DNA of 64,000 bases from Candidatus Omnitrophota bacterium (GCA_028716245.1 JAQUQW010000002.1:421346-485345); one strand, 5' to 3'; shown: positions 3,198-45,263, counted from the first letter of the stretch. A program made the numbers and translations. Notes: a model not told the origin generated them from the letters alone.

Positions 3198-3237
3198 TTT
3201 CTCCGCCTGCGGGGTGGGTATTTTTTTTTTAAACAAC

Positions 3238-3266
3238 TTGACAAGGGTAGGGGGGTATGGTATTAT
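3238..3266 (+). promoter_or_regulatory. Sigma70-like promoter (TTGACA-N17-TATTAT) with G-tract operator-like sequence in the spacer
   Basis: 'ttgaca' 3238-3243 and 'tattat' 3261-3266, followed by RBS 'aaaggag' and the csoR ATG at 3291. The spacer is 'agggtaggggggtatgg'. A weak hairpin plus T10 run at 3201-3230 terminates the upstream regulator genes. Confidence 0.5.
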
Positions 3267-3290
3267 TGATTTGGAAAGGAGACACAGAAG

Positions 3291-3575
3291 ATGGAACAGT
3301 CAACTACCCATGAAGGACAATTGGAATTTTTGAAAAAAATCGAAGGGCAGGTCCGCGGCATACAAAAGATGATTGAAGAAAAACGCTACTGTGTGGATAT
3401 AATTACCCAGATTCATTCCATTGTCGGGGCGCTGCACAGAGTAGAAGATGAGATATTTAAGAAACATATTGACGGCTGTGTGGTGAGCGCCTTAAAGGGA
3501 AAATCAGAAAGCGAAAAGCAAAAGAAAATCAATGAAATCGTAAAACTTATTTCCAGGTTCAGGAAGGCGGCTTAG
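3291..3575 (+). CDS. csoR: CsoR-family copper-sensing transcriptional repressor
   Basis: 'LKKIEGQVRGIQKMIEEKRYCVDIITQI' is the DUF156/CsoR core. The Cu(I) ligand triad has exact CsoR spacing: C ('RYC'), then H 25 residues later ('KKH'), then C four residues after that ('HIDGC'). Confidence 0.85.
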   Translation: MEQSTTHEGQLEFLKKIEGQVRGIQKMIEEKRYCVDIITQIHSIVGALHRVEDEIFKKHIDGCVVSALKGKSESEKQKKINEIVKLISRFRKAA

Positions 3576-3579
3576 GCGT

Positions 3580-4860
3580 ATGCTTAAAAAGACTTTGGCC
3601 CTAATTTTGGTTGGCGTATGCGTATTCAATAGCGGCTTTGCTTATCCCTTGGACCGGCTGTCCTTGGATCCTTTAATCGAAGAAGCCAGAAAAAATAATC
3701 CGGATATTTTAGCCGCCAAGAAACGCTGGGAAGCTTCCAACGCCCGCATACCGCTGTCAAAGTCTTTGGATGACCCGGTATTAAGTTTTACTTTCGAAAA
3801 AACACGCGGCAGCCCTTTTCAATTAAGCAAAACAATGCCTGAAGACAGGATGCTCTCTCTCTCTCAATTTTTGCCCCTCTTTGGCAAATTGTCCCTGAAA
3901 GGGAAAATTTCCGTGGTTGAATCCCGGATGTTTGCCGCTGAATATAAAAATAAGGAATTGGAAGTAATCAATCAAATCAAAAATGCTTATTACGATTTAT
4001 TTATGGACTATAAGGAGATTGGATTGAATCAGGAAAGCCTGGTATTGTTAGAAGGCCTGATCAAAGTTGCCGAAGCAAAATATGCGGTTGGCGGTATGCC
4101 TCAGGAGGAAATTTATAAGCTGCATTCGGAGGCAGCCAGCCTTAAAAACAAAATCAAAAACCTGCAAGAGGGCAAGCTTGCCAAACAAACAATCCTGAAT
4201 ACCTTATTAAACAGGGATCCGCAAGGGCCATTAGGAATTCCGGAATTAAGCCAGGATGTTTCCTTTGCTAAAGACATCCGCGCCTTGTATCAAGCTGTTT
4301 TGCTTAACCAGCCGGAATTGCTTATTTTCGCATCAGCTATAGAAAGAAATAAATACGCCAAGTCTCTGGCAAAACGAAGCTTCTTTCCGGATTTATTGGC
4401 CCAAATTACGGAGCGGGGTTTTACTACGGGAACCATCGGCCCCTGGGATTTAATGTTGGCATTTACAGTGCCGTTATGGTTCTGGACAAAACAACGTTAT
4501 CAAGTAAAAGAAGCGATCGCTAATTTAGAAGAAGCAGAGGAGGCATATAAGGCAATGCAGAATAAGGCGTTTGCCGAAGTTAAGGATTTAGCCGCAAAAA
4601 TAGAGATCGCCAAAAATAAAATAAAACTCTATAAAACCGACCTTATACCGATATTAGAGAATTCTTTTGAAGTGTCTTTGGCTTCGTTTCGTTCCGGAAG
4701 AAGTGATTTTATGGCGCTTATCGATACCCAAAGAATGCTTATCGAGACCAAAATGGACTATTATAAAGCGCTGGTTGAATACAATATGGCTTTGGCCGAC
4801 CTGGAACGCTCCGTAGGCTTGAGTTTTACCGAAAAATCCGAGGTGAAAAATGAGAAATAA
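3580..4860 (+). CDS. cusC: Outer-membrane efflux protein (TolC/CusC/CzcC family)
   Basis: Signal peptide and two OEP repeats, with the typical 'LNQPELL...AKYAVG' helical pattern. It sits immediately upstream of the adaptor and RND genes. Its stop overlaps the next gene's start. Confidence 0.8.
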   Translation: MLKKTLALILVGVCVFNSGFAYPLDRLSLDPLIEEARKNNPDILAAKKRWEASNARIPLSKSLDDPVLSFTFEKTRGSPFQLSKTMPEDRMLSLSQFLPLFGKLSLKGKISVVESRMFAAEYKNKELEVINQIKNAYYDLFMDYKEIGLNQESLVLLEGLIKVAEAKYAVGGMPQEEIYKLHSEAASLKNKIKNLQEGKLAKQTILNTLLNRDPQGPLGIPELSQDVSFAKDIRALYQAVLLNQPELLIFASAIERNKYAKSLAKRSFFPDLLAQITERGFTTGTIGPWDLMLAFTVPLWFWTKQRYQVKEAIANLEEAEEAYKAMQNKAFAEVKDLAAKIEIAKNKIKLYKTDLIPILENSFEVSLASFRSGRSDFMALIDTQRMLIETKMDYYKALVEYNMALADLERSVGLSFTEKSEVKNEK

Positions 4861-6049
4861 AAATGTTTTAGTCATCGCTTTGTTTTCGCTTATTGCCGTA
4901 TTGTTAGTGGTGATTACATTGTTTTTTGTTAGGCATTACCGTATTTTAGGAAAGCAATCCGTAACCGGATCGGTAAGCGCGGAAAAAGATATATATTATT
5001 GCCCGATGCATCCTGCTTATACTTCTGGGAGGCCGGGAGATTGCCCTATCTGTGGAATGAAATTAGTCAAAAAAGAAAAATCCGAAAATCAAAACCATAG
5101 TGCCGCGTCAAAAAAAGAACGCAAGTTGCTTTATTACCGCAATCCCATGAATCCAGAAGTTACTTCGCCTGTACCCATGAAAGATTCAATGGGTATGGAT
5201 TATGTTCCGGTATATGAGGAAGAAGCTTCCGGAAACTCTGGGATTTACATGAGCCCGGAGAAACAGCAGCTTATCGGGGTAACCAAAGAGAAGATCCAAA
5301 AAAGAGAGCTTACCCAGCAAATTCTTACAGTAGGCAAGGTAGCTTATGATCCGGCTCTGTATATAGCGCAAGAGGAATTTCTGCAGGCATTAAAAACGCA
5401 AGGCGAATTGTCAGGTTCTTCTATTGCAGCCCAGGGTAAATCCTTGTTAGAAGCAGCAAAACGAAAACTCTTATTATTGGGGATGGACAAGGTACAGATT
5501 GAAGAGTTAGCTAAACAAAATAAGCCTCAAGGCAACCTTTATTTACCGACAACAGAAAATACAGTCTGGGTGTATATAACCATCTACGAGTATGAAGCAG
5601 GTTTTATTAAAATGGGATTACCGGTTGAGATAGAAGCGATTGCTTTCCCGGGAGAAATATTTAACGGAAAAATTTCCGCGATAACACCGGTGTTGGATTC
5701 AATGACCCGCTCTATACAGGTAAGGGCGGAAGTGGATAATTCTGACAATAAACTTAAGCCCGAAATGTTCGTTAATGTTAAGATTAATGTGGACCTCGGA
5801 GAAGTCCTTGCCGTTCCTGAAACCGCTGTTCTGGATACGGGCGCAAGAAAGATTGTTTACCTTGCCAAAGACGCGGATATGCTGGAGCAGCGCGACGTCA
5901 CCTTGGGCCAGAAAGCTCAAGGCTATTATACGGTACTTAAAGGATTAGTTGAAGGGGACCAGGTAGTTACCAGTGGAAATTTCCTGGTGGATTCTGAGAG
6001 TAAATTAAAAGGCGCCACCCAGGGCGCCACTCATAAACACGGGGAATAA
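4850..6049 (+). CDS. cusB: Heavy-metal efflux RND periplasmic adaptor (CusB/CzcB-like) with N-terminal metal-binding motif
   Basis: Single TM/signal region, then the 'YYCPMHPAYTSGRPGDCPICGMKLV' heavy-metal-binding module typical of CusB-type adaptors, then a membrane-fusion beta-barrel/lipoyl region. Confidence 0.85.
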   Translation: MRNKNVLVIALFSLIAVLLVVITLFFVRHYRILGKQSVTGSVSAEKDIYYCPMHPAYTSGRPGDCPICGMKLVKKEKSENQNHSAASKKERKLLYYRNPMNPEVTSPVPMKDSMGMDYVPVYEEEASGNSGIYMSPEKQQLIGVTKEKIQKRELTQQILTVGKVAYDPALYIAQEEFLQALKTQGELSGSSIAAQGKSLLEAAKRKLLLLGMDKVQIEELAKQNKPQGNLYLPTTENTVWVYITIYEYEAGFIKMGLPVEIEAIAFPGEIFNGKISAITPVLDSMTRSIQVRAEVDNSDNKLKPEMFVNVKINVDLGEVLAVPETAVLDTGARKIVYLAKDADMLEQRDVTLGQKAQGYYTVLKGLVEGDQVVTSGNFLVDSESKLKGATQGATHKHGE

Positions 6050-6061
6050 TGAGAAAATAAG

Positions 6062-9000
6062 ATGATTGAAAAGATAATTGAATTTTCGGCAAAAAATAAA
6101 TATATCATTATCATTTTGGCTATTGTGGCGATGGTGGTGGCGGTTTATTGCATTAAGAATATACCGTTGGACGCGATTCCGGATCTTTCCGACACTCAAG
6201 TCATAATTTATTCCCGTTGGGACCGTTCTCCCGATATCATCGAGGATCAGGTAACCTATCCTATAGTGACCGCAATGCTCGGAGCGCCTAAAGTCAAAGC
6301 CATCCGCGGCTTTTCTGATTTCGGGTTTTCTTACGTGTACATTATTTTTAAAGATGGGACGGATATATATTGGGCGCGCAGCCGTGTGCTTGAATATTTA
6401 AGTAAAATTATACCGAAATTACCGGAAGGCGTGCGCACGGAAATTGGGCCGGACGCAACCGGTGTAGGCTGGGTGTATCAATACGCCCTGGTCGATAAGA
6501 GCGGAAAAAATAACCTGGCGCAGCTGCGCACTTTCCAGGACTGGTATTTGCGTTATTGGCTGCAGAGTGTTCCGGGTGTGGCGGAAGTGGCTTCGCTAGG
6601 CGGATTTCAGAAACAGTATCAGGTCAATATTAATCCGAATGCCTTGTTGGCGTATAAGATTCCTTTGGTGAAAGTTTTGGACGCCATTCGAGACGGTAAT
6701 AATGACATAGGCGGCCGTTTAGTGGAATTTTCCGGGACCGAATATATGGTCAGGGGCAGAGGCTATGCTAAATCCGTAAAAGACATTGAAAATGTTGTTT
6801 TAGGAAATGATCTGTCCGGCACCCCGATTTTAGTTAAGAATGTGGCTCAGGTAGTAATGGGCCCGGAAATACGCCGGGGGGTCGCGGATCTGGATGGGCA
6901 AGGCGATACGGTCGGCGGTATCGTGATAATGCGTTACGGTGAGAACGCGCTCAATGTTATTAATAATGTTAAAGAAAAGATCGAAGAGATTAAACCTTCC
7001 TTACCCAAGGGTGTCCAGATCATTACTACCTATGACCGTTCGGAGCTGATAAAACGTTCCATTGAAACATTAAAGCATCAGTTAATTGAGGAAATGATCA
7101 TCGTCAGTTTTGTTATCCTTCTTTTCTTATGGCATTTCCCTTCGGCAATTATCCCGATTGTCACCATTCCGATAGCGGTACTTTTGTCGTTCATTCCGCT
7201 GTTTGGATTGAAATTAACTTCAAACATTATGTCTCTTTCGGGCATAGCGATTTCTATAGGCGTGCTTGTTGATGGAGCGATTGTTGAAGTGGAAAACGCT
7301 TATAAAAAATTGCAGTTATGGGAAGCAGGGGGCCGTAAAGGCGATTATCATATAGTGAGGCTCAACGCGTTAAAGGAAGTCGGGCCTTCCGTATTTTTCT
7401 CACTTTTGGTTATTGCGGTCGCGTTTTTACCGGTATTTACGCTGGTTGATCAGGAGGGAAGGTTATTTAAACCCCTGGCGTTTAGCAAAAATTTTGCCAT
7501 GGCCATTGCCGCCATATTAGCGATAACACTCGATCCGGCGATGCGGATGTTGTTTACCAGAATGGATTATAAACATTTCCGGCCCAGATGGTTCTCCAAC
7601 ATATTCAATACGATTACAGTAGGCAGGTATTATCCTGAAGAAAAACATCCGGTAAGCAAAATTTTATTTAGATTTTATGAGCCTGTATGTAATTTCGTGC
7701 TTAAACACCGTAAAACCACATTAATCGCTGCGGCTATATTGATTCTTGCGACCATACCCGTTTATTTGCAATTAGGTTCGGAATTTATGCCTCCGCTTAA
7801 TGAGGGGACAATCCTTTATATGCCGACTACTTTACCGGGTATCTCAGTGACTGAAACGCAAAGGCTCCTTCAGACGATGGATAAAATTATAAAAACTGTT
7901 CCTGAAGTTGAGCGGGTGTTTGGAAAGGCCGGCCGCGCCGAAACCTCGACTGATCCGGCGCCATTTTCAATGATGGAAACCACCATTGTGTTAAAACCGG
8001 AAAGCCAGTGGCGTAAGGTACACCGTTGGTATTCCTGGATGCCCGCAGGTTTACAGGGGCCATTGCGGCCGATTTGGCGCGATAGGATTACCTGGGAAGA
8101 TATAATCAATGAGTTAGATAAAAAAATGCAATTTCCCGGGGTCAGTAATGCCTGGACGATGCCGATTAAGGCCAGAATTGATATGTTATCTACGGGAGTG
8201 CGCACGCCCATAGGAATCAAGGTTTATGGGGCGGATTTAAAAGAGATAGAGAAGATCGGCACGCATTTGGAAATGATTATGAAGGGGGTTAAAGGCACAC
8301 GCAGTATTTACGCCGAGCGGGTTACCGGCGGATATTTCGTGGATTTTGACATTAAGCGCGATCAGATCGCCCGCTACGGCTTGAGTATAAAAGAAGTGGA
8401 GATGGTGATCATGTCGGCTATCGGCGGTGAACCGGTTACTACCACCGTAGAAGGCAGAGAAAGGTATACGGTGAATGTGCGCTATGCCCGGGAACTTCGG
8501 GATGACTTGCCGAAACTGCGCAGGGTATTGGTATCCACAATGTCCGGGGCGCAGATTCCGTTGGAAGAGTTAGCCGATATCCATCTGGCATTAGGGCCGG
8601 CAATGATCAGGGATGAAAACGGGATGCTCTCCGGTTACGTGTATGTGGATATCGCCGGGCGGGATGTTGGCAGTTATGTAACTGAGGCAAAAAAGATAGT
8701 GCAAAAAGAACTGCAAATACCTACGGGGTATTCGATTGTCTGGAGCGGGCAGTACGAAAATATGCTCAGAGTCAGGGAAAGATTAAAGCTGGTAATACCC
8801 ATTACTATATTCATAATCTTTGTCTTGCTTTATATGAACACAAAATCGCCGGTAAAAGCGGGCATTGTTATGTTAGCCGTTCCGTTTTCATTGATCGGAG
8901 CGGTATGGTTTCTCTATATTCTAAAATACAATATTTCCATTGCCGTCTGGGTCGGGATGATCGCCTTGATGGGTTTAGACGCGGAAACCGGGGTGTTTAT

Positions 9001-9352
9001 GCTGTTGTTCTTGGATCTTTCTTACTACGATATGGTCAGGCAGGGAAGAATGAAAACTTTTGAAGATTTAAAAGAGGCAATTATCCATGGCGCGGTAAAG
9101 CGTATCCGGCCGAAGATGATGACCGTGATGGCGATGTTCATGGGTTTAATTCCGATAATGTATTCTATGGGTACCGGCAGCGATATGATGAAACGCATTG
9201 CCGCGCCGATGATCGGAGGGGTATTTACAAGTTTTATTCTTGAATTATTAGTCTACCCTCCGATTTATTTGATTTGGAAATGGCGCTTTGAAATGAAATA
9301 TGGCACGGTAGACGTAAGTAAATTACCGATACCGGAATTACGCAGACATTAG
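6062..9352 (+). CDS. cusA: Heavy-metal efflux RND transporter (HME family, CusA/CzcA-like)
   Basis: 1096 aa with a 12-TM AcrB/CzcA architecture and two large periplasmic loops. Gene order is OMF-MFP-RND. The start of the protein resembles CzcA/CusA N-termini. Confidence 0.9.
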   Translation: MIEKIIEFSAKNKYIIIILAIVAMVVAVYCIKNIPLDAIPDLSDTQVIIYSRWDRSPDIIEDQVTYPIVTAMLGAPKVKAIRGFSDFGFSYVYIIFKDGTDIYWARSRVLEYLSKIIPKLPEGVRTEIGPDATGVGWVYQYALVDKSGKNNLAQLRTFQDWYLRYWLQSVPGVAEVASLGGFQKQYQVNINPNALLAYKIPLVKVLDAIRDGNNDIGGRLVEFSGTEYMVRGRGYAKSVKDIENVVLGNDLSGTPILVKNVAQVVMGPEIRRGVADLDGQGDTVGGIVIMRYGENALNVINNVKEKIEEIKPSLPKGVQIITTYDRSELIKRSIETLKHQLIEEMIIVSFVILLFLWHFPSAIIPIVTIPIAVLLSFIPLFGLKLTSNIMSLSGIAISIGVLVDGAIVEVENAYKKLQLWEAGGRKGDYHIVRLNALKEVGPSVFFSLLVIAVAFLPVFTLVDQEGRLFKPLAFSKNFAMAIAAILAITLDPAMRMLFTRMDYKHFRPRWFSNIFNTITVGRYYPEEKHPVSKILFRFYEPVCNFVLKHRKTTLIAAAILILATIPVYLQLGSEFMPPLNEGTILYMPTTLPGISVTETQRLLQTMDKIIKTVPEVERVFGKAGRAETSTDPAPFSMMETTIVLKPESQWRKVHRWYSWMPAGLQGPLRPIWRDRITWEDIINELDKKMQFPGVSNAWTMPIKARIDMLSTGVRTPIGIKVYGADLKEIEKIGTHLEMIMKGVKGTRSIYAERVTGGYFVDFDIKRDQIARYGLSIKEVEMVIMSAIGGEPVTTTVEGRERYTVNVRYARELRDDLPKLRRVLVSTMSGAQIPLEELADIHLALGPAMIRDENGMLSGYVYVDIAGRDVGSYVTEAKKIVQKELQIPTGYSIVWSGQYENMLRVRERLKLVIPITIFIIFVLLYMNTKSPVKAGIVMLAVPFSLIGAVWFLYILKYNISIAVWVGMIALMGLDAETGVFMLLFLDLSYYDMVRQGRMKTFEDLKEAIIHGAVKRIRPKMMTVMAMFMGLIPIMYSMGTGSDMMKRIAAPMIGGVFTSFILELLVYPPIYLIWKWRFEMKYGTVDVSKLPIPELRRH

Positions 9353-9371
9353 AAAAAGGGGAGCAGGCTAA

Positions 9372-10718
9372 ATGATAATGGTGCACACGCAAAATGGCAT
9401 GCATGCGATGAATTTTGTATGCTTCCTTACCTTCTTGACCTTTATTTTCATATTCGGCCTGATAATTTGGGAAAAAATCCCCCGAATGTACCTGGCGCTA
9501 TGCGGGGCAGTCCTGGTTGTTGCTTTGGGCGTTTTTGATGTCAAGGAAGCCATAAACACGGTAAGTTGGGAAACGATCGGTTTTTTGCTGGGGATGTTCC
9601 TGCTTGTAGAGATACTTGTTGAAGCGGGTTTTTTCCGTTGGGTAGCATTGGTTCTGGCCGGAAAGCTCAATTACCAGCCGATTAAAATACTCATATTTTT
9701 TCCTCTATTGTCCTTTGGATTATCCGCGTTTATTAATTCCATAACCGTCATGGTTTTTTTGACGGTAGTTACTTTTGAGTTGAGCAGATTGCTTAAATTC
9801 GATCCTGTGCCGGTAGTAATAAGCGAGGTAGTGTTGGCCAATATCGGCGGGGCGGCTACCCTGGTCGGAGATCCTCCGAATGTCATCTTAGGGACAGTGC
9901 TCGGTTTTAATTTCAATGATTTTCTCGTTCACAACGGGCCCATAGCTGTACTTTCTGCCCTGGTTGCCATAGGCGTGAGTTTTTTGATGAATAAAAAAGC
10001 ATTTTCACAGTTGCACCCCGAGGCAGATTTAGAGGGAATAAAAAATATCCAGCCGCGTTCCCAGATAAAAGATAAGTTTCTGCTTAAAATCGGCTTGATC
10101 GGAATGGCCGTGGCATTGATTTTTCTTATCGGCAGGCCCTTATTTGAAAAATTCGGTATTCCGATGTATGTTTCGACTTCTTCGCTGCTTCCGGCATTCC
10201 TCATTCTTACCTTTGGCGGAAAAAGGATTTATAAACACCATTTTATGCGCCGGATTGATGCTGAAACCATTATGTTTTTTATTGGTTTGTTTATCATTAT
10301 CGGCGCTTTAGAGAAAAGATTCATTATCCAGATGGCGGCAAACTTTCTTGGCGAAATATTTAAAACTCCCCTGGGTTTTATAAGTTCGACCTTTTGGGGT
10401 TCAGCGATAATTTCGGCGTTTGTGGATAATGTGCCTTTGGCCATGGCCATGACTTATATAATAAAACAGAGCGTGGCTGCAAAAATAATCCCGGGGGCCG
10501 GTATTATGGTTTGGGCAACCAGCCTGGGTGTGGATTTAGGAGGCAATCTTACCCCCATAGGCGCCTCGGCAAATGTGGTGGCGTATTCTTCTTTAGAAAA
10601 AAATGAGATTAAAGTCGGCTGGGGGAGGTGGTTAAAATTAGCGCTTCCGCAGGGTTTGGCGGCGCTTGCCGTAAGTTATCTAGGTATTTTACTTAAATTA
10701 CACTTAAAGTTTTTTTAA
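9372..10718 (+). CDS. Ion-transporter superfamily permease (ArsB/NhaD/CitMHS-like)
   Basis: About 12 TM segments, an internal repeat structure, and motifs 'GDPPNVILG' and 'GGNLTPIGASANVV' typical of ArsB/NhaD-fold permeases. Substrate unknown. Confidence 0.55.
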   Translation: MIMVHTQNGMHAMNFVCFLTFLTFIFIFGLIIWEKIPRMYLALCGAVLVVALGVFDVKEAINTVSWETIGFLLGMFLLVEILVEAGFFRWVALVLAGKLNYQPIKILIFFPLLSFGLSAFINSITVMVFLTVVTFELSRLLKFDPVPVVISEVVLANIGGAATLVGDPPNVILGTVLGFNFNDFLVHNGPIAVLSALVAIGVSFLMNKKAFSQLHPEADLEGIKNIQPRSQIKDKFLLKIGLIGMAVALIFLIGRPLFEKFGIPMYVSTSSLLPAFLILTFGGKRIYKHHFMRRIDAETIMFFIGLFIIIGALEKRFIIQMAANFLGEIFKTPLGFISSTFWGSAIISAFVDNVPLAMAMTYIIKQSVAAKIIPGAGIMVWATSLGVDLGGNLTPIGASANVVAYSSLEKNEIKVGWGRWLKLALPQGLAALAVSYLGILLKLHLKFF

Positions 10719-10758
10719 TGGCGGTATAGGTATTAACAAAAGTGAAAGGAGAGCTAAA

Positions 10759-11151
10759 ATGGTTAAGGCAATATTTTTGTTTTTGATTATGGGGACGTTT
10801 GTTTTTGGAATGAGTAGATTATCTTTGGCGATGAACTGTGGAGAGCATAGCGAACATATGCAGGTTGCTCAGACAAGTAGCAGCGAGCATAATCATGAAA
10901 CGATGGCCAAGCAGGAGGTTTCAGCTCAAGACCTGCCTCAGGAGGCTGTCAATGTGGGTAATAAAATTTGCCCGGTTTCCGGAGAAAAGGTTAGCCAGGG
11001 AGGAATGCAATCAGCAACCTATGAATATAAAGGGAAAATTTATAATTTCTGTTGTGCCGCCTGTATCGAGGATTTCAAAAAAGATCCGCAGAAATACATC
11101 AAAAAAGTAGAGCAGGAATTACAGGGAATGCATCAAGGCCATCAGCATTGA
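10759..11151 (+). CDS. Secreted YHS-domain metal-binding protein with His-rich segments
   Basis: Signal peptide. The YHS-type motif 'NKICPVSGEKV...YEYKGKIYNFCCAACIEDFKKDPQKY' is present, flanked by His-rich stretches 'SEHNHETM' and 'MHQGHQH'. Confidence 0.7.
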   Translation: MVKAIFLFLIMGTFVFGMSRLSLAMNCGEHSEHMQVAQTSSSEHNHETMAKQEVSAQDLPQEAVNVGNKICPVSGEKVSQGGMQSATYEYKGKIYNFCCAACIEDFKKDPQKYIKKVEQELQGMHQGHQH

Positions 11152-11180
11152 AAATTTAAATCATAAGAAGGGAGTTTTAG

Positions 11181-11894
11181 ATGCAGATTTATCCTAGAAG
11201 ATATTTGGTTATTTTTTTATTTTTTTGTTTAACATTTTTTTCGCATATAGGATTGGCCCAGAGCGCCACCGATTTAAAGGCGGAAATTTATCCTAAACTC
11301 AGGGATAAGCGCTGCCCGACGATGACCCTTGCTCAATGCGATTGTCCTGATGCCAGGGAAATGAAGGCCTATATCGATGCGCTTATAGAGACAGGCATAA
11401 GTAAGGATGAAATTTTTTACAGAGTGGCAAAAAAATTTACTCTGAATACGATACTGGATGAACAGATCAGGCAGGTTGTAGAGAAAAGGCTGGTTAAGGA
11501 GACTGGTGAAAAACGGCCGCAGATAGTTTTAGAGGACTCTTCTTTTAATTTCGGTAAAGTAAGCAAAAAGCAGGGAAAACTTACTAAAAATATCAAGTTG
11601 TTTAACCGGGGCAATTCGGATCTGGCTATTGAAAATATAAAAGTTTCCTGCAGCTGCGTAACCGCCGCATTAACCGTGGGCAAAGATAAAAGCCCTTATT
11701 TCGGCAGCCAGGGAGCGCCAGCCGGCTGGCAGATGGTTATTGGCGCGGATAAAGGCGGCGAATTAGAGGTCATCCTTGATTTAGCCCATCCGTCAATAAG
11801 TAACGGAAAGGTAATCCGGGATGTCTTTATCAGCAGCAACGACCCTCTTTATCCCGAAAGTACGCTGAGAATCGAAGCAGAACTAAGCGACTAA
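11181..11894 (+). CDS. Secreted DUF1573-domain protein with N-terminal Cys-rich helical module
   Basis: Signal peptide. The C-terminal 'FNFGKVSKKQGKLTKNIKLFNRGNSDLAIENIKVSCSCV' matches the DUF1573 Ig-like domain with its CxC. The N-terminus 'LRDKRCPTMTLAQCDCPDAREMKAYIDALIETGISKDEI' is reminiscent of CcmH/NrfF-type modules. Confidence 0.6.
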   Translation: MQIYPRRYLVIFLFFCLTFFSHIGLAQSATDLKAEIYPKLRDKRCPTMTLAQCDCPDAREMKAYIDALIETGISKDEIFYRVAKKFTLNTILDEQIRQVVEKRLVKETGEKRPQIVLEDSSFNFGKVSKKQGKLTKNIKLFNRGNSDLAIENIKVSCSCVTAALTVGKDKSPYFGSQGAPAGWQMVIGADKGGELEVILDLAHPSISNGKVIRDVFISSNDPLYPESTLRIEAELSD

Positions 11895-11912
11895 GATCTT
11901 ATCAAAATAAAA

Positions 11913-14138
11913 ATGGAAAAAATTACTCTTAATATTACCGGTATGCACTGTGCCTCGTGCGCAAGTAATATCGAAGCTGCCTTAAAAAGGTTTCCCGGGG
12001 TTTTTAGCGCCCGGGTTAATTTTGCTACAGAGAAGGCCTATATTGAATTCGAACCTCGAAAATTAAAGCTAGCGGATTTAATCAGAACGGTTGAAAAATC
12101 GGGATATAAGGCCTCTTTACCCGGACTATCCCCGGATAGAGAAAAAGAAATAAGGGAGAGGGAAGTAAGGAGCCTAAAAATAAAATTTATACTTTCGATA
12201 ACCTTATCCAGCATATTGATGTATATTGCCATGGGGCCATGTATAGGATTAGGTATCCATAAAACTATCATGGATAATATGGCCCTTATTCAATTCTTAT
12301 TGGCAAGCGGGGTCTTAATCTGCGGGTATCAGTTTTTTGCGCGCGGGATCTTTTCGCTGGTAAGGATTCATCGGGCGAATATGGATACACTGGTAGCTTT
12401 AGGCGTAGGCAGCGCCTATCTGTATAGTTTATTTGTCAGTATTAACATCTGGCTGGGCAATAAATCCTTTGGGATGAGAAATCTTTATTATGAGGTGGCT
12501 GCATTCCTGCTTACCTTTGTTCTATTGGGCAAGTATTTAGAGGCGATTACCAAGAGGAAAACTTCGCAAAGCATCAAGCGCTTATGGAATTTACGCCCCA
12601 AGACTGCGATAGTGATGCGTCAGGGGCAAGAAGTGGAAATTCCCGTTGAAGAATTGCTGGTTGGAGATACGGTGGTAGTGAAGCCCGGGCAGAGGATCCC
12701 GGTTGACGGCAAGATTACCGAAGGGTATTCCAGTATTGATGAATCGATGATCACCGGAGAGAGTATCCCCCTAGAGAAGACACTAAATGACAAGGTTATC
12801 GGCGGCTCGATAAACAAATACGGGACTTTTAAGTTCAAAGCCACAAAGGTAGGCAAAGACACTGCCTTGGCCCAGATCATAAAATTAGTTGAAGAGGCTC
12901 AAGGGTCAAAAGCCCCCATACAGGAATTAGCGGATAAGGTTGCCGCCATTTTTGTGCCTATGGTATTAATCATCGCTTTTGCTTCCTTCTTTATTTGGAT
13001 TTTCTTAGGTAAAGGTTTTATTTTCGGTTTAACTACTTTTATCGCGGTGTTAATTATTGCCTGTCCCTGTTCTCTGGGTCTGGCTACTCCCACCGCGGTT
13101 ATGGTGGGAACCGGAAAAGCGGCAGAAAATGGAATAATTATCAAGAACGCGGCCTCTTTACAGATAGCTGCAGAAATCGACAAAATTATTTTTGATAAAA
13201 CCGGAACCCTTACTGAGGGTAAGCCTAAGCTTACAGATATCGTAAGTTATATCGGGAATAAAGATGAGGTGTTAATGCTTGCCGCGTCCTTGGAGAAACC
13301 ATCCGGCCATGTCCTTTCCGATGCTATCGTTGGCGCTGCCAAAGAAAAAGGCATCTCTTTAACGCAGCTGCAGCAGTTTGAAACCATATCCGGCGAAGGG
13401 GTGGTGGGTAAAATTGAAGAGGGCCAAACGATCCTGGCGGGTAACCGCCGGCTTATGCAAGAGAGGGCAATTGATATAAAAATCGCAGCAGGGGATTTAG
13501 ATAGATTAGAGAAGCAGGGAAAGACCATAACCTTGGTTGCCAAAAATGATAGGCTTATCGGCTTAGTGGCAGTAAGGGACACTTTAAAGGAGTTTTCTAA
13601 AACCTTAATTGATAAACTGAAGAGAATGGGTAAGGATGTGATTATGATCACTGGCGACAATAAACGGACTGCCGTGGCAATTGCCAAAGAGATAGGTATT
13701 GAAAAGGTTCTAGCGGAAGTTTTGCCAAAAGACAAATTAGATGAAATTAAGAAATTACAGAACGAGGGTTTTAAAGTTGCTTTTGTGGGAGACGGAATCA
13801 ATGATGCCCCGGCCTTATCTCAAGCTAATTTGGGTATAGCTATCGGAAGCGGTACAGATGTAGCCATTGAATCAGGAGATATTATTTTAATTAAAGACGA
13901 CCTGCGTGATGTAGCAATGGCTATAGATCTATCGGGCTATGCAATGAGAAAGATAAGGCAGAATCTTTTCTGGGCATTCTTTTATAATATAATCGGGATC
14001 CCTATTGCCGCAGGAATACTCTATCCATTTAACGGCCTGCTGCTTAATCCGATGGTGGCCGGGGCGGCGATGGCCTTTAGTTCGGTGTCTGTGGTGTCGA
14101 ATTCCTTATTGATGAATAAATATAAGCCAAAAATGTAG
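11913..14138 (+). CDS. copA: Copper-translocating P1B-type ATPase
   Basis: N-terminal HMA 'GMHCASCASNIE', TM6 'CPC' ('IACPCSLGLATP'), phosphorylation site 'DKTGTLT' and hinge 'GDGINDAP'. Confidence 0.95.
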   Translation: MEKITLNITGMHCASCASNIEAALKRFPGVFSARVNFATEKAYIEFEPRKLKLADLIRTVEKSGYKASLPGLSPDREKEIREREVRSLKIKFILSITLSSILMYIAMGPCIGLGIHKTIMDNMALIQFLLASGVLICGYQFFARGIFSLVRIHRANMDTLVALGVGSAYLYSLFVSINIWLGNKSFGMRNLYYEVAAFLLTFVLLGKYLEAITKRKTSQSIKRLWNLRPKTAIVMRQGQEVEIPVEELLVGDTVVVKPGQRIPVDGKITEGYSSIDESMITGESIPLEKTLNDKVIGGSINKYGTFKFKATKVGKDTALAQIIKLVEEAQGSKAPIQELADKVAAIFVPMVLIIAFASFFIWIFLGKGFIFGLTTFIAVLIIACPCSLGLATPTAVMVGTGKAAENGIIIKNAASLQIAAEIDKIIFDKTGTLTEGKPKLTDIVSYIGNKDEVLMLAASLEKPSGHVLSDAIVGAAKEKGISLTQLQQFETISGEGVVGKIEEGQTILAGNRRLMQERAIDIKIAAGDLDRLEKQGKTITLVAKNDRLIGLVAVRDTLKEFSKTLIDKLKRMGKDVIMITGDNKRTAVAIAKEIGIEKVLAEVLPKDKLDEIKKLQNEGFKVAFVGDGINDAPALSQANLGIAIGSGTDVAIESGDIILIKDDLRDVAMAIDLSGYAMRKIRQNLFWAFFYNIIGIPIAAGILYPFNGLLLNPMVAGAAMAFSSVSVVSNSLLMNKYKPKM

Positions 14139-14159
14139 CGGCCGGCTTATATTTTTTTG

Positions 14160-14187
14160 TTGACAATATATGCAAATTGTATATAAT
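14160..14187 (+). promoter_or_regulatory. Near-consensus sigma70 promoter (TTGACA-N16-TATAAT) in AT-rich leader with short direct repeats
   Basis: 'ttgaca' 14160-14165 and 'tataat' 14182-14187. 'attgtat' is repeated twice. RBS 'aggaag' precedes the ATG at 14237. A short hairpin 'gccggc' plus T-run follows the copA stop. Confidence 0.5.
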
Positions 14188-14236: not shown

Positions 14237-15784
14237 ATGAAGATACTGAACAAGAATACGATCAAACTGCTCAAGCTTTTTTATAAGCACCCCGAAAGCC
14301 AGTTTTACATTCAGCAGATCGGCCGGCTCTTGGGGAAGAAGCCCGGGGTATTCCAAAGGACTTTGAACAATCTCTATAAGGACGGTTTGCTTTTAAGCGA
14401 ATATAAGGCCAATGCAAGATTTTTCAGGATTAACAAAAATTATTATATCTATAATGAGCTAAAGAGCATCATCGATAAATCGGTTAAAATATTTTTGATT
14501 ATATTCTTATTCTCTGTCCCGTTTTTATATGCCGCAGAAAATCCGCTTACCTTAAGCCAGGTAATAGAGATCGCCTACAAAAACAACAAGGATATCCGGA
14601 TACAAGAGCAGGAGATCGCCGCCGCCGGAGCCGGTATACTGGGAGCTTCCAGTAATTTCCTGCCGCATCTGGATATTGATGCCGCCTATACGCGCAATGG
14701 AGCGGTTGCCGTTTCTACGGCCCAGGGTAAGAAAGATCCCGGGATATTTACCGGATATAAGAACGATAATTCTTTGGGAGCAAGTTTAAGCCAGATAATT
14801 TATAACGGCGGTTTTAATACCGCTAATCTTAACCAGGCAAAAGTCGCTTTGAATGTCCAGAAAGAAACCCTGCGGGCTAAAAAACTGGATATCGAATTTG
14901 AGGCAAAGCGGCTTTATTACGGTTTGCTGCTGGCTTATGAAACAGAGAGGATTGCTCAGGAGTTGGTAGATAATGCCAAGGATCACTATACGGATGTTAA
15001 AAATAGATATGGGCAGGGGACATCTTCGAAATTTGACCTGCTGCAGTCGGATGTCCAGGCATCTTTGCTTATCCCGGAACTGGTAAAAGCCCGGAATGCG
15101 GTGGATTTGATTAAAGCGGAGCTGAAAAAACTTTTAGCTTTTAAACAACAAGAGGAACTAGAGGTGGCGGATAAACAGCTGCATTATTCTTTACTTAAAA
15201 TCCAGGAGGATGATTTCTTAAAACAGGCTTATCTGAACAAGCCGGAAATGATTTTAAAGTCCCTGGGCATAGATATCAGCCGGTGGTCGATACAAATAGC
15301 AAAATCCGGATGGCTGCCGCAGGTAAACGCCAGTTTAGGCTATGATTATCGTTCAAATGATATAGGAAATATGTTTAATCGCCGGCATAATAATTGGAAT
15401 ACCGGAATTTCCTTATCCATGCCGCTATTTGACGGTTTTTCCACAAAAGCAAAAGTAGATGCTGCCCGGGCCCGCTATAGCCAGGCGCTCCTGACTAAAG
15501 AAAACCTGGTGGATCAGATTGCCGTTAGTGTCCGGCAGGCCTGCCTGGATTTAAAGCAGGCCGAAGCAATCATTAATTCGCAAAAGGATAATGTGGGAAA
15601 AGCAAGAGAGGCCTTAAGAATTGCCAATGTCAGTTATGATAACGGAGAGGCAAAGAACCTTGATGTGCTCGATGCGCAGGTCTCATTGGGCCAGGTGGAA
15701 ACAAATCTTTCACAGGGAATTTACGATTATCTTATGGCAAAAGCAGAACTTGACAGGGTCTTGGGTTTAAGTTTTATTCAGTAA
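14237..15784 (+). CDS. TolC-family outer-membrane efflux protein with an unusual ~80-aa N-terminal winged-helix-like extension
   Basis: Residues ~85-515 are a typical OEP/TolC with two repeats, after a signal-like 'VKIFLIIFLFSVPFLYAAE'. The first 80 aa 'LLKLFYKHPESQFYIQQIGRLLGKKPGVFQRTLNNLYKDGLL' look like a wHTH DNA-binding domain. The ATG at 14237 has a good RBS and no in-frame stop separates the two parts. Confidence 0.75.
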   Translation: MKILNKNTIKLLKLFYKHPESQFYIQQIGRLLGKKPGVFQRTLNNLYKDGLLLSEYKANARFFRINKNYYIYNELKSIIDKSVKIFLIIFLFSVPFLYAAENPLTLSQVIEIAYKNNKDIRIQEQEIAAAGAGILGASSNFLPHLDIDAAYTRNGAVAVSTAQGKKDPGIFTGYKNDNSLGASLSQIIYNGGFNTANLNQAKVALNVQKETLRAKKLDIEFEAKRLYYGLLLAYETERIAQELVDNAKDHYTDVKNRYGQGTSSKFDLLQSDVQASLLIPELVKARNAVDLIKAELKKLLAFKQQEELEVADKQLHYSLLKIQEDDFLKQAYLNKPEMILKSLGIDISRWSIQIAKSGWLPQVNASLGYDYRSNDIGNMFNRRHNNWNTGISLSMPLFDGFSTKAKVDAARARYSQALLTKENLVDQIAVSVRQACLDLKQAEAIINSQKDNVGKAREALRIANVSYDNGEAKNLDVLDAQVSLGQVETNLSQGIYDYLMAKAELDRVLGLSFIQ

Positions 15785-39270: not shown

Positions 39271-40299
39271 GTGGACGCATTGTTAAAAAAAATTATTGAG
39301 GCACCCGGCATTCCGGGGTATGAAACTCAAATCGCCAAAATTATGCATGATGAACTCAAAAAGGTTTGCGACGACGTGCAAATCGATAATTTCGGTAATG
39401 TCATTGCCAAAAAAGGCAAAGGCAAAAAGAAGATTATGCTTGCCGCGCATATGGATGAAATTGGCCTGATGGTCAAGCACATCACTAAGGAGGGGTTTTT
39501 GTATTTTATAAAAGTAGGCGGAATCGATGACCGGATTCTTCCTGCCCAGCGGGTAATCGTCAAGGCTAAAAAAGGCGACTGCCTGGGAATAATCGGCGCC
39601 AAGCCGCCGCACCTGCAGAGAGAAGAGGATAAGAAAAAGCCCCTTAAATATGAAGATATGTTTATCGATATCGGCTGTAAGAGCAAAGAAGAGGCGGAGA
39701 AAAAGGTAGAGGTGGGGGATGTGGTAATTTTTGAGCCTAATTCCGGGGTATTAAACGGCAAGCTATATTACGGCAAGGCCATTGACGACAGGATTGGGTG
39801 TTTCGCGCTGATTAAAATAATGGAGAAATTAAAAACTGAAGCGGAAGTTTACGCGGTTGCCACAACTCAGGAAGAGGTCGGTTTAAAAGGCGCGCGCACT
39901 TCGGCATTTAAGGTTGATCCGGATTATGCTCTAGCCATCGACACTAATGCCGCCGGCGATACTCCTCAGATAACCGAACGCGAATCTTCTTTAAAGCTGG
40001 GCTCAGGGGTGGCCATCACCATTATTGAGGCATCCGGAAGAGGGTTGATCGTCAATGAAAAGATAAAGGACCTGCTCATTGATGTTGCCAAGAAGAATAA
40101 AATTAAATATCAGATCGATGTAATCGAGGGCGGGATGACTGACGGAGCGATTATCCATATGAACAGGGAAGGGGTTCCCACGGGAGTATTAAGCATACCT
40201 ACTCGTTATATTCATTCGCCAACCGGAGTTTTTAATATTGAAGATTTAGACGCTGCCGTGGAGCTGGCGGTAAAGGCGGTGGAGAGTTTGAGTAAATGA
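39271..40299 (+). CDS. M42-family aminopeptidase (FrvX/endoglucanase-like)
   Basis: 'AAHMDEIGLMV', 'AIDDRIGC' and 'HSPTGV' are M42 metal-ligand motifs. GTG start with RBS 'aaggaggtaaagtg'. Confidence 0.85.
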   Translation: MDALLKKIIEAPGIPGYETQIAKIMHDELKKVCDDVQIDNFGNVIAKKGKGKKKIMLAAHMDEIGLMVKHITKEGFLYFIKVGGIDDRILPAQRVIVKAKKGDCLGIIGAKPPHLQREEDKKKPLKYEDMFIDIGCKSKEEAEKKVEVGDVVIFEPNSGVLNGKLYYGKAIDDRIGCFALIKIMEKLKTEAEVYAVATTQEEVGLKGARTSAFKVDPDYALAIDTNAAGDTPQITERESSLKLGSGVAITIIEASGRGLIVNEKIKDLLIDVAKKNKIKYQIDVIEGGMTDGAIIHMNREGVPTGVLSIPTRYIHSPTGVFNIEDLDAAVELAVKAVESLSK

Positions 40300-40503
40300 G
40301 GTAGATTTCATTAATATTCCAGCATAGATTTTGGTTGTAAAAGGAGGGGTAGAGGGGTAAAATATAGCCCTAGTACAAAGGGGCGTTATATGGAGTTTGG
40401 ATATCAAAATCTAAAGGCAACTCTCTAAAAAATAGGGGGCTGCTTTTTTATTGGCCATCTCTAATTTGTGAAAAATAGAAACAGTATCTAATTTTACCAA
40501 CAG

Positions 40504-43038
40504 ATGTTTAATTTATTTAAATTTCAAAATTATCGTTTTTATTGGAAAGTAAGAAGTTTAATTTTATTTCTTAAGTTTAAAATAAATAGTCTATTTTTTA
40601 AAGGTAATCTAAGAATAAAAGAAGTTAAGGAAGAGTTATCAATTACTACTCAGCTAGCATGGCTTTCCTCCAAGACAATTCTTTTCTCTATTTTTATTGT
40701 AATATTTCTTGAATTACTCGAAAAAGTAATATTAAAACTCCTTCCTGTAGATAAAACAATCTTTCTAGCTAAAACACACTCCTTAATTACGGGGAATCCT
40801 TACTCTTTAGAGAATTTTCTTATGACAATTGCTTCGGTATTGGGAGTATTTTTGGGTCTTTACTTCACGGCAGTTAGTATAGTAGCTAGTTCTGTATTTA
40901 CAACTGTACCAAGCGATGTTAGAGAATTGTATTTGAGAGAGAAAATTGGGAATACATATATAAAAATATTAGCCATTCTTTTGGCAGTCTCAATTATAAT
41001 GTTTGGTTACAGAATATTCAATTATTATCCGGGTATATTGCCAATCGTTTTAATGCTCATTTTTAGTTGTATTAGCATATTCGCATTTGTGATGTTAGGA
41101 ATTAGGGCCTTTTCCTTTTTTGACCCTACCATATTGGCAGATACTATCTTTAGTGATTTGTATGCTAATATAAAATTGGCAAGTGTTAACGGGCTAAAAT
41201 GGTCTGATTCTAGCCTCCAATCCCATTATCATAAGCTTGCAGCAAAGAACATAAATACCCTGAATAATTTAGTAGAAATATGTTTGAAAAATCCTAACTT
41301 ATACAAAAAGTCTGTTCCATTGTTATCATGGCGGGTATGTTATTTTTTAAAAGATTATCAAATTCAGAAGGCTTTAATACCCACTGATAGCTATTGGTTT
41401 TCTCGTGTACCAAAATATAAGGATACTTTTCTTGTGGACGGTTCAGTATTGCAAATAGCATTACAAACACAAACTTCTATACAGCCAGAAGTTATAACTG
41501 ATAATTATTGGTTTGAAGATGAGGTATTTAAAATACTTACGAATATGCTCAAGGTTATGTTAGATAGCCATAATATTGCTATTGCAGCAGATATTCTCGA
41601 TGGAATTAATAAATATTTTGAAGAGTTAGGAGAAAAGCTAGAAGGAAAGAAATGCTGCGGAATGCTAAAAAATATAGAGACAGTGATGGAACCTTATTTT
41701 TTAGGTCTTTCTGAAGATAAATGTAAAGGAACGGGTGACATAAATTTTGCATTATTTGATAGATATAATATGCTTCTACTATCTTGTGTTATAGGATTTA
41801 ATAAATTTAGTCGCGAATTCAAACTATCTTCATTTATGCAAAGCGTGGATTCAATTTTATGGGAAGATAAGGGAGCCATATATCGAAGTTCTGTTATGTC
41901 TATTACATTAGAAAGACTAGAATTCCTTCAAAAGCGTCTTGAATTTGAACAAAAGGTGGAAGGAAAGTTTATTAGTCCTGTTTGGTATAGGAGGCAGTTA
42001 GTCGGTATTAAAATTGGTCATGTGATAAATGAGTGTTTTGAATCGGTAGTAGATTCATTACAGAAATTCTATGTTGATAGTTCTAATATTCTATTAGATA
42101 AAAAACTTATTGTTTTAACAACATATAGGACTAGAAGAGGGCTTGAAGCGTTTTCGAAAATACAAGTTCATCTTTCGAGCATTAAAAAACTAATAGAAGG
42201 TTTCGATAAATTTAATATAGAAAAGGAATTGCCTTGGCCAAAGTGGGATTGGGATACTATTGAGAAGAGGATAGACAAGAATAACGATTCCCTTATCCAG
42301 CAAGAGGCCAAATGTCTCCCAATGCTATCTCTCATAAATAAAACAGAAAACGAGCCAGACCTTTTCGGAGAAACATATCATAGAATTTGTCAGGAATGTT
42401 TTGAATCCTTATCAAATAATAAAGATGAAAAATTCTCCATTGTATTTCCTTCTTTATTTATAAGTGCGCTTCAAGCCCACGACTTGCTTAGAGTTTCATA
42501 TAAAGACCGTGATGCCAGAACGCAAATATTAATTTCCTTTCAGCCACTATCAGACCTTATTGAGTTAAGTGGTTATGCCAAAATATATTCTGAATTATTC
42601 TCTTCTCCAAATCTATGGCAGACATGTCAGAAGAGTTGGGATAATTATTTAAGTAATCAGGTGAAAAAAGATGAAACAATAAAATATATCATTACAAGTT
42701 ATCAATATAAACGGGCTCAATTTGGTTTATTTGCGCGTGACATATGGAAAACAAATTGGCAAATGGAGCTTAATAATAAATTACGAGAAAATAATTTGAT
42801 TAACAGTAGATTTAGAGGAGATGATTATTGGAAAGGGCTAGAGGGGAAGCAAATACATAAAAGTCCTTTTATTCGAACTCTATGTAGGGGTAGGTATGAG
42901 CCATTTATTACAGCCTCGGAAATTTTCCTTCTTGTTTATTTTGTAAAACAACATGGAATCAATGATTTTGTTGATAATCGTGATTTTATTAAACATTTAG
43001 AAGAGGAAGAAGCTCTCCACAATGAAGATAAGGCATAA
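40504..43038 (+). CDS. Large membrane-anchored hypothetical protein (4 N-terminal TM helices + ~650-aa soluble domain)
   Basis: Strongly AT-rich coding sequence. Four hydrophobic helices lie in the first ~230 aa. I recognise no family. Confidence 0.6.
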   Translation: MFNLFKFQNYRFYWKVRSLILFLKFKINSLFFKGNLRIKEVKEELSITTQLAWLSSKTILFSIFIVIFLELLEKVILKLLPVDKTIFLAKTHSLITGNPYSLENFLMTIASVLGVFLGLYFTAVSIVASSVFTTVPSDVRELYLREKIGNTYIKILAILLAVSIIMFGYRIFNYYPGILPIVLMLIFSCISIFAFVMLGIRAFSFFDPTILADTIFSDLYANIKLASVNGLKWSDSSLQSHYHKLAAKNINTLNNLVEICLKNPNLYKKSVPLLSWRVCYFLKDYQIQKALIPTDSYWFSRVPKYKDTFLVDGSVLQIALQTQTSIQPEVITDNYWFEDEVFKILTNMLKVMLDSHNIAIAADILDGINKYFEELGEKLEGKKCCGMLKNIETVMEPYFLGLSEDKCKGTGDINFALFDRYNMLLLSCVIGFNKFSREFKLSSFMQSVDSILWEDKGAIYRSSVMSITLERLEFLQKRLEFEQKVEGKFISPVWYRRQLVGIKIGHVINECFESVVDSLQKFYVDSSNILLDKKLIVLTTYRTRRGLEAFSKIQVHLSSIKKLIEGFDKFNIEKELPWPKWDWDTIEKRIDKNNDSLIQQEAKCLPMLSLINKTENEPDLFGETYHRICQECFESLSNNKDEKFSIVFPSLFISALQAHDLLRVSYKDRDARTQILISFQPLSDLIELSGYAKIYSELFSSPNLWQTCQKSWDNYLSNQVKKDETIKYIITSYQYKRAQFGLFARDIWKTNWQMELNNKLRENNLINSRFRGDDYWKGLEGKQIHKSPFIRTLCRGRYEPFITASEIFLLVYFVKQHGINDFVDNRDFIKHLEEEEALHNEDKA

Positions 43039-44017: not shown

Positions 44018-44086
44018 TTTAAACTTTGGGTTGTCTATTCAAGATATAGGTCTGGTTGTTAAAGAGACATAGATAGTACAATATAC

Positions 44087-44947: not shown

Positions 44948-45263
44948 ATGGATTGGTTGAAGAGAATGAAACTGTAATGATTGCAGACATAAATTATTTT
45001 GAAATGGAAATAGTAAAATCAAGAAAAGGAGGAATAAATTAAAAATAAAGCCCTAAAGGTTGCGGGAGTTATTTTCCTCTTAGTGGCAATTATGCATTTA
45101 TTAAGAGTAATCCTGAAGTCTGAAGTAATAATAGCGGGTTTTACTCTGCCAATTTGGTTTAGCATATTGGGTTTATATTTGCGCTATTGCTATCACTATG
45201 GATGTTCAAATCTCTTAAATAGCCCAAAATTATTGCAAAGATACTGTGTCTAACTATAAACAA

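Follow-up and report, generated by a model that had tools for sequence, protein, structure and literature searches.

Copper homeostasis in bacteria is conventionally divided into two arms, one in which cytoplasmic sensors (CueR, CsoR and CopY) control P-type ATPases and one in which periplasm-sensing two-component systems control Cus-type pumps of the resistance-nodulation-division (RND) family. Here we examine a locus, headed by a csoR gene and carrying both a cusCBA pump and copA, in a 64-kb stretch of DNA (64,000 nt; hereafter the window, from whose first letter all coordinates are counted) from a Candidatus Omnitrophota bacterium (GCA_028716245.1, JAQUQW010000002.1, positions 421346 to 485345). 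The locus is probably a real eight-gene Cu/Ag export operon of this uncultivated organism that is switched on by the cytoplasmic sensor CsoR, and we estimate a probability of roughly 0.78 that it is one CsoR-autoregulated efflux operon, in which classical CsoR derepression acts over a larger unit. Its function is ordinary, namely the detoxification of copper and silver. Functionally, it would work like a Gram-positive csoR-copZA operon joined to an Escherichia coli-type CusCBA pump.

Among the closest described systems are the CsoR-controlled copZA and cso operons of the Gram-positive species Bacillus subtilis, Mycobacterium tuberculosis, Streptomyces lividans, Staphylococcus aureus and Listeria monocytogenes. 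Our locus shares with these the repressor family, the C-H-C metal triad, the Tyr/Glu second shell, a conserved Gln, a G-tract box overlapping the promoter and a P1B-1 ATPase (CopA) among the genes, and the position of csoR within the putative operon, with the autoregulation that this implies, resembles the M. tuberculosis cso operon. In contrast to the Gram-positive operons, it has a tripartite RND pump, which requires an outer membrane, together with periplasmic accessory proteins and a permease, and it has no copZ; the left arm of its box is degenerate (AAG or TAG for TAC), the RLxR motif of the repressor is replaced by FLKK, and the repressor clade has two histidines of its own, His7 and His42. 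The pump is related to the cusRS-cusCFBA system of E. coli: CusA, CusB and CusC are homologous, the Met triads of CusA and CusB are present and the gene order, cusC-(F)-B-A, is the same. However, our locus has neither CusRS nor CusF, includes copA in the unit and encodes a CusB with an extra HMBD domain, and control is apparently exerted by a cytoplasmic one-component repressor rather than by a periplasm-sensing kinase.

Two CsoR systems of diderm bacteria also invite comparison. The csoR-cueA system of Bradyrhizobium liaoningense (PMC5057107) also has a C-H-C CsoR, and a box overlapping the -10 element represses a Cu ATPase, but the genes form a divergon, the box is fully palindromic (TATACCC-N5-GGGTATA) and only the ATPase is controlled, with no RND pump. 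In the copZ-csoR-copA operon of Thermus thermophilus, csoR is likewise co-transcribed with copper efflux genes; this operon, however, lacks an RND pump, and its CsoR motif is given as H-C-H-H in one paper and as C-H-H in another. In the literature searched, we found no CsoR-controlled cus operon. Reviews associate CsoR with copA/copZ, and the Cus system with CusRS, a single Gram-negative csoR-cueA divergon is described (PMC5057107), and a paper on the CsoR of Pseudomonas putida draws no link between CsoR and cus. What appears to be new here is thus the placing of an RND pump under CsoR, together with an operator that is half-asymmetric and periplasmic accessory proteins rich in cysteine, a combination that, by the sequences compared, is widespread in genomes.

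Results

The locus consists of eight co-directional genes on the + strand between positions 3291 and 14138. They encode a 94-aa repressor of the CsoR/RcnR family (csoR, 3291-3575), a CusC-like outer-membrane factor of the OEP family with a signal peptide (cusC, 3580-4860), a CusB-like periplasmic adaptor with HMBD and HlyD_D23 domains (cusB, 4850-6049), a heavy-metal RND pump (cusA, 6062-9352), a secondary transporter assigned to the ArsB/NhaD family (CitMHS, SLC13-like; 9372-10718), an exported protein with a YHS/TRASH domain and His/Met-rich stretches at both termini (10759-11151), an exported DUF1573 protein (11181-11894), in which a helical domain with three Cys residues is joined to an Ig-like DUF1573 domain with a CxC motif, and a P1B-1 Cu(I)-exporting ATPase (copA, 11913-14138). 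The gaps along the string measure 4, -11, 12, 19, 40, 29 and 18 nt. The initial annotation had described such a string, with short or overlapping gaps and with a CsoR-type repressor gene at the head of Cu/Ag efflux genes; all eight genes lie where it placed them, the family labels were confirmed, and the head gene encodes a bona fide CsoR-type repressor.

The csoR product matches Pfam PF02583 (Trns_repr_metal) with 89.1 bits against a gathering cut-off of 22.8. Its best solved relative is the CsoR of Geobacillus thermodenitrificans (4M1P), and its closest homologues from named sources, with 78 to 91% identity, come from Candidatus Omnitrophota or Omnitrophica. The Cu(I) triad is C34-x24-H59-x3-C63, which is the canonical CsoR spacing; the triad itself and the x3 interval had been read correctly, whereas the first interval had been given as x25. 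No substitution of the key residues Y33, C34, Q40, H59, C63 or E82 occurs in the 120 metagenome homologues or in two of the three groups of relatives defined below (A and C). In group B there are a few exceptions, with C34 and C63 each substituted once and Q40 also affected, while Y33 and E82 are invariant across all groups. The second-shell Tyr (Y33) and the helix-3 Glu (E82) presumably couple Cu(I) binding to DNA release, as known from M. tuberculosis CsoR. Among the homologues compared (P0001 to P0120 and L001 to L058), His7 (in a TTH motif) is essentially invariant in the Omnitrophota-type clade and His42 nearly so, and both are mostly missing from Firmicute CsoRs.

A sigma-70-type promoter lies upstream of csoR on the + strand (3238-3266), with a -35 hexamer TTGACA (3238-3243), a 17-nt spacer (agggtaggggggtatgg) and a TG-extended -10 hexamer TATTAT (3261-3266). 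The hexamers match the consensus at 11 of 12 positions, which bears out the near-consensus promoter with a 17-nt spacer proposed earlier. Between 2700 and 16000 only two sites reach at least 11/12, against 0.44 expected from shuffled sequences, and these occupy the sole two gaps longer than 90 nt. The spacer is filled by a G-tract-containing site (GGGTAGGGGGG) that overlaps the operon promoter and is conserved in 30 loci; within it we place the putative CsoR operator AAGGGTAGGGGGGTAT (3243-3258, + strand), a G-tract box with a GTA right arm. When the upstream regions of related loci were anchored on the G-tract and aligned, a 30-nt block (TTGACATAGGGTAGGGGGGTATGGTATACT / cTTGACATAGGGTAGGGGGGTATGGTATACT) stood out with about 2 bits per column in 30 related loci, against 0.1 to 0.3 bits in its flanks. 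The promoter in these loci is TTGACA-N18-TATACT, also at about 2 bits per column, and the spacer bases are conserved as strongly as the hexamers.

Recognition by sigma-70 does not require the spacer bases. Since these bases are dispensable for the polymerase and yet invariant, their conservation argues for a bound protein. In 20 related loci the block is on average 92% identical to that of the window, against 44% at third-codon positions of csoR, 36% in the 30 nt upstream and 44% in the 24 nt downstream. Because the adjacent third-codon positions and the 5' untranslated region are saturated with changes, the conservation of the block reflects selection and not recency. In more distant relatives and in Firmicutes, a canonical CsoR box (ATACCnTAGGGGGGTAT) stands at the same promoter position: the spacer of the distant relatives reads ATACC-N-TAGGGGGGTAT, i.e., TAC-N9-GTA, which is found in L027, L032, L034, L039, L040 and L043, and that of the Firmicute loci reads ATACCnnnnGGGGTAT. 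These boxes fit the published type-2 CsoR operator, a G-tract pseudopalindrome in which a TAC-N9-GTA dyad is required by S. lividans CsoR (PMC3902906). The Omnitrophota/Brocadiia box keeps the G-tract and the right arm, and its left arm has changed from ATACC to ATAGG, giving TAG-N9-GTA. We consider it very likely that this G-tract, within the promoter spacer, serves as the operator for CsoR; the initial annotation had compared it to CsoR-type boxes, and its near-invariance in the related loci that carry it, together with its replacement by a canonical box in distant ones, agrees with that comparison. There is one strong box in the 64-kb window and no further one, and each of the related loci likewise has a single strong box, which precedes csoR or the head of the operon, with no extra ones.

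Upstream of the promoter, a terminator-like hairpin on the + strand (3202-3230; stem 3202-3208 / 3212-3218, loop GCG, with UA and a run of ten U residues behind it; -8.5 kcal/mol for 3202-3218) forms the apparent end of an upstream gene for a response-regulator receiver (REC) protein. The motif ggggtgggtat had been noted as a related sequence just upstream of the promoter. Its position (3211-3221) was correct, but it consists of the loop base and 3' arm of this terminator and has no counterpart upstream of csoR in relatives, and we have discarded it as a second operator. At the other end, a second terminator-like hairpin on the + strand spans the copA stop codon and is followed by a U-run (14118-14158; arms AAAUAUAAGCC / GGCUUAUAUUU at 14118-14128 / 14144-14154; -15.1 kcal/mol, z = -2.55). 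Directly past it, an independent promoter with a perfect 12/12 match (14160-14187) serves the next gene. The gaps inside the csoR-copA string contain no convincing + strand terminator, and Rfam and tRNA scans of the window gave zero matches.

The two-component proteins encoded upstream of csoR, in which the initial annotation had seen no metal-sensing motifs, are unlikely regulators of the locus. One of the two response regulators is a REC-GGDEF-HD-GYP protein and the other consists of REC only, so that neither has a DNA-binding output; the terminator lies in between, and these genes are not conserved beside csoR. A Pfam scan of the kinase found HisKA and HATPase_c alone, with no match to a sensor domain. 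No CusRS-type two-component regulator with a DNA-binding response regulator is located next to csoR.

The linkage of csoR to cus genes was surveyed in the 80 best of at least 463 CsoR relatives obtained by a scan of species-representative genomes. The window proteins were mapped onto the relatives' loci by tblastn, and loci were counted if they extended at least 1.2 kb downstream. Group A (CsoR identity of at least 61%) is almost entirely Omnitrophota; group B comprises more distant metagenome-assembled genomes (Aminicenantes, Brocadiia/Planctomycetota, Verrucomicrobiota and others); group C contains Firmicutes, Chloroflexi-type and other loci. In group A, cusC follows csoR directly in 24 of 31 loci and lies anywhere downstream in 26, and copA is never the next gene. 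The 26 loci of group B have cusC directly after csoR in 8 cases and anywhere downstream in 17, with copA next in 13, where the order is often csoR-copA-cusCBA. None of the 19 group C loci has cusC downstream at any position, and copA is next in 16. As cusCBA follows csoR in 24/31 and 17/26 loci, this is the usual layout in diderm lineages with this CsoR clade, and it is routine in Omnitrophota and several related lineages. The architecture had been considered uncommon, and comparative genomics of the csoR-cusCBA linkage had been proposed as a check; the linkage proved not to be rare, and the term holds only against model Proteobacteria and the literature, not among the diderm relatives.

The csoR genes of some relatives, together with the invariant promoter, head other cargo. 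In L015 (2670-6057) and L024 (5290-7184), and probably in L021, a porin and an ABC exporter of the MacB/FtsX type follow the csoR head; in L023 (50-3605) the genes behind it encode a permease resembling ArsB, a YHS protein and a YHS-ArsP permease; and it is followed in L032 (10001-13364) by ArsR and a CoA-disulfide-reductase/rhodanese gene. In L002 (JAHFFR010000033.1), the string cusCBA-YHS-DUF1573-copA is closed by a second csoR, immediately behind copA and with a box of its own, and records for this contig list two different CsoR proteins (P0006 and P0030). Identity to the window is also uneven along single loci. In L001 it amounts to 89% for csoR, 64% for cusC, 53% for cusB, 60% for cusA, 46% for YHS, 80% for DUF1573 and 90% for copA, and in L013, L016 and L019 cusA is 87 to 88% identical and cusC 32 to 57%. 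This mosaic suggests an exchange of modules among Omnitrophota.

The metal specificity of the pump and of the ATPase is indicated by both family scores and ligand residues. CusA scores 1066 bits with TIGR00914 (cut-off, 701) and 1006 bits against E. coli CusA, compared with 484 bits against ZneA, and in the alignment its M587, M637 and M708 fall on M573, M623 and M672, which form the Cu(I)/Ag(I) triad of the E. coli protein. CusB has M100, M114 and M116 in alignment with M49, M64 and M66 of E. coli CusB, and its extra N-terminal HMBD reads YYCPMHP...CPICGM. CopA scores 614 bits with TIGR01511 (cut-off, 397) and has the HMA motif CASC13-16, CPC384, DKTGT428, YN691 and MxxSS720. None of the eight operon proteins matched the CusF family, and the accessory positions are held by the YHS and DUF1573 proteins. 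Family scans of the same eight proteins found no copZ gene in the operon.

Three accessory genes lie between cusA and copA. Orthologues of the permease (76 to 90% identity) follow cusA directly in all three other Omnitrophota contexts that were fetched, so that the permease-cusA association is real; the gene is missing from most relatives' operons. In the YHS protein, a signal peptide is combined with tails rich in His and Met and with a Cys pattern resembling TRASH. Homologues of this protein are found downstream of csoR in 15 related loci, mostly directly after cusA; it is a candidate periplasmic metal-binding protein. The DUF1573 protein, which is 100% identical to P0241 of Candidatus Omnitrophica, has five Cys residues that are invariant across 50 homologues, three in the helical domain (C45, C53 and C55) and two forming the CxC of the Ig-like domain (C157 and C159). 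Look-ups by exact sequence of this identical protein and of the window CsoR retrieved no record. The N-terminal domain of the DUF1573 protein bears a weak resemblance to CcmH (E = 0.0056, which misses the cut-off). The fold confidently predicted for the protein, with a predicted local distance difference test score of 90, is a helical domain plus an Ig-like sandwich, and a fold search with this model returned generic Ig-like domains of the PapD/ASH/HYDIN type alone and gave no functional lead. Several DUF1573 homologues (P0293, P0327 and P0339) have a C-terminal cupredoxin with a CuA-type ligand pattern, H...CxxxCxxxHxxM, and this fusion provides a Rosetta-stone link to copper.

Discussion

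Our results suggest a simple mode of operation for this locus. At low copper, oligomers of apo-CsoR would occupy the G-tract box in the spacer of this very strong promoter (3238-3266) and block RNA polymerase. Cytoplasmic Cu(I) would then bind to C34, H59 and C63, the signal would pass via Y33 and E82, and CsoR would leave the DNA. A single csoR-cusC-cusB-cusA-permease-YHS-DUF1573-copA transcript would be produced, ending at the hairpin after copA, and csoR, as its first gene, would be autoregulated. CopA would move Cu(I) from the cytoplasm to the periplasm and CusCBA would expel Cu(I)/Ag(I) across the outer membrane. The part of CusF is probably taken by two exported proteins, YHS and the five-Cys DUF1573 protein, which would bind copper in the periplasm or pass it on.

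Several observations weigh against this proposal. In its left arm the box reads AAG (window) or TAG (close relatives) instead of TAC, so that the TAC-N9-GTA dyad is not present, and swapping the C/G of both arms abolished binding by S. lividans CsoR (PMC3902906). The window box is also one base shorter than the family consensus; the window has AAG-N9-GTA, a spacer of 17 rather than 18 nt and TATTAT rather than TATACT. On the protein side, two elements of CsoR are described as DNA contacts, an RLxR motif in helix 1 and, in helix 2, a conserved Gln (PMC3902906). The window protein retains the Gln (Gln40) but reads FLKK at the RLxR position, with Phe for the first Arg. This Arg is present in none of 151 Omnitrophota-type sequences, which have F, Y, A or S instead, as against 22 of 22 group C (mostly Firmicute) sequences. 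At the distal end, the loop of the post-copA terminator is atypical at 15 nt, and gene content past cusA differs among relatives; because of this variation, the case for co-transcription is weaker for the distal genes than for csoR-cusCBA.

It might be supposed that the loss of the first Arg accompanied the change of the box from TACC to TAGG. Such covariation is unsupported: Omnitrophota loci with canonical boxes (L027, L032, L039, L043 and L048) also lack this Arg, and the Brocadiia-type loci L044, L047 and L051 have RLKR or RLRR together with TAGGG boxes.

CsoR might govern csoR-cusCBA only, while the permease, YHS, DUF1573 and copA genes have promoters of their own or are regulated differently, and we consider such a division into more than one transcription unit an improbable outcome, if the most serious of the alternatives. 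It would be in keeping with the mosaic nature of the distal gene content, the permease being absent from most relatives' operons, and with a 10/12 promoter-like match (10733-10760) in the 40-nt permease-YHS gap. The -10 element of this match, however, overlaps the ATG of the YHS gene, and the site is not kept in L081, whose permease is 90% identical to that of the window; we have rejected it as an internal promoter. The gaps of at most 40 nt, without a convincing + strand terminator, and the lack of a second CsoR box within the window also speak against a division. A quite different doubt concerns the nature of the box itself, as the 30-nt block lacks the full TAC/GTA dyad and, with csoR, stands before cargo that varies from genome to genome, as a mobile module might. 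The block could then be no more than a strong promoter, active constitutively and not bound by CsoR, that has been transferred horizontally along with csoR. We regard this as very improbable, since bases that a sigma-70 promoter can spare are conserved like the hexamers, the saturation of neighbouring sites indicates selection rather than recent spread, and a canonical CsoR box occupies the same spacer in more distant relatives.

It is also conceivable that the repressor responds to another effector, either Ni/Co, as in InrS and RcnR, with His7 as a fourth ligand, or a persulfide, as in CstR. The near-complete conservation of His7 and His42 in the Omnitrophota clade but not in Firmicute CsoRs is compatible with this, InrS (5FMN) is among the solved relatives, and the ArsR and CoA-disulfide-reductase/rhodanese genes behind csoR in the distant relative L032 form a CstR-like context. 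Yet the canonical triad spacing and the Tyr/Glu second shell fit a Cu(I) CsoR, and RicR and CsoR outrank RcnR, FrmR and InrS among the matches to families and structures. In RcnR and InrS the N-terminal His ligand reportedly lies 32 residues before the Cys, whereas His7 lies 27 residues before Cys34. As all transporters of the operon were counted as bearing Cu(I)/Ag(I)-type ligands, we think a different effector quite unlikely. Control of the whole string by a copper-responsive CsoR thus accounts best for the locus.

The locus and several dozen relatives point to a sizeable set of uncultivated diderm bacteria in which both steps of export are under a single cytoplasmic repressor and a single promoter that hardly varies. 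A broader and more tentative picture, which we think possible rather than likely, is that a large Omnitrophota CsoR clade, with relatives in anammox Planctomycetota, Aminicenantes and Verrucomicrobiota, serves as the sole cytoplasmic sensor for ATPase and RND efflux. Its asymmetric operator, (T/A)AG-N9-GTA, would break the TAC/GTA rule of the Gram-positive CsoRs, with the change of RLxR to F/Y/A-L-K-K and the presence of His7 going along with it; CusF would be replaced by YHS handlers and by five-Cys CcmH-like/DUF1573 handlers, sometimes fused to a cupredoxin, and a dedicated ArsB/NhaD-type permease would complete the set. The 30-nt promoter/operator may be viewed as a testable, ready-made copper-responsive part, and the half-asymmetric box would serve as a natural experiment on the recognition of G-tract DNA by CsoR. 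New functions in the handling of periplasmic copper may lie with the conserved YHS, five-Cys DUF1573 and ArsB-like genes.

Surroundings of the locus

The gene after copA (14237-15784, 515 aa) encodes a winged-helix-like N-terminus of about 80 aa (weak MarR_2 match, E = 0.042), continues in the same frame with a segment resembling a signal peptide and with a TolC/OEP body, and is either a fusion or a run-on open reading frame (ORF). It is preceded by AT-rich repeats with the 12/12 promoter mentioned above and followed by genes for HlyD, two ABC ATPases and two ABC-2 permeases. Between 18000 and 64000, nearly all ORFs of at least 150 aa that do not overlap a longer + strand ORF are on the + strand, and the cumulative GC skew climbs monotonically over the entire window. 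The segment from 40000 to 45000 has a GC content of 33%, against 43 to 46% elsewhere, and contains three ORFs (844, 331 and 286 aa) that have no Pfam match; this low-GC block may be an island.

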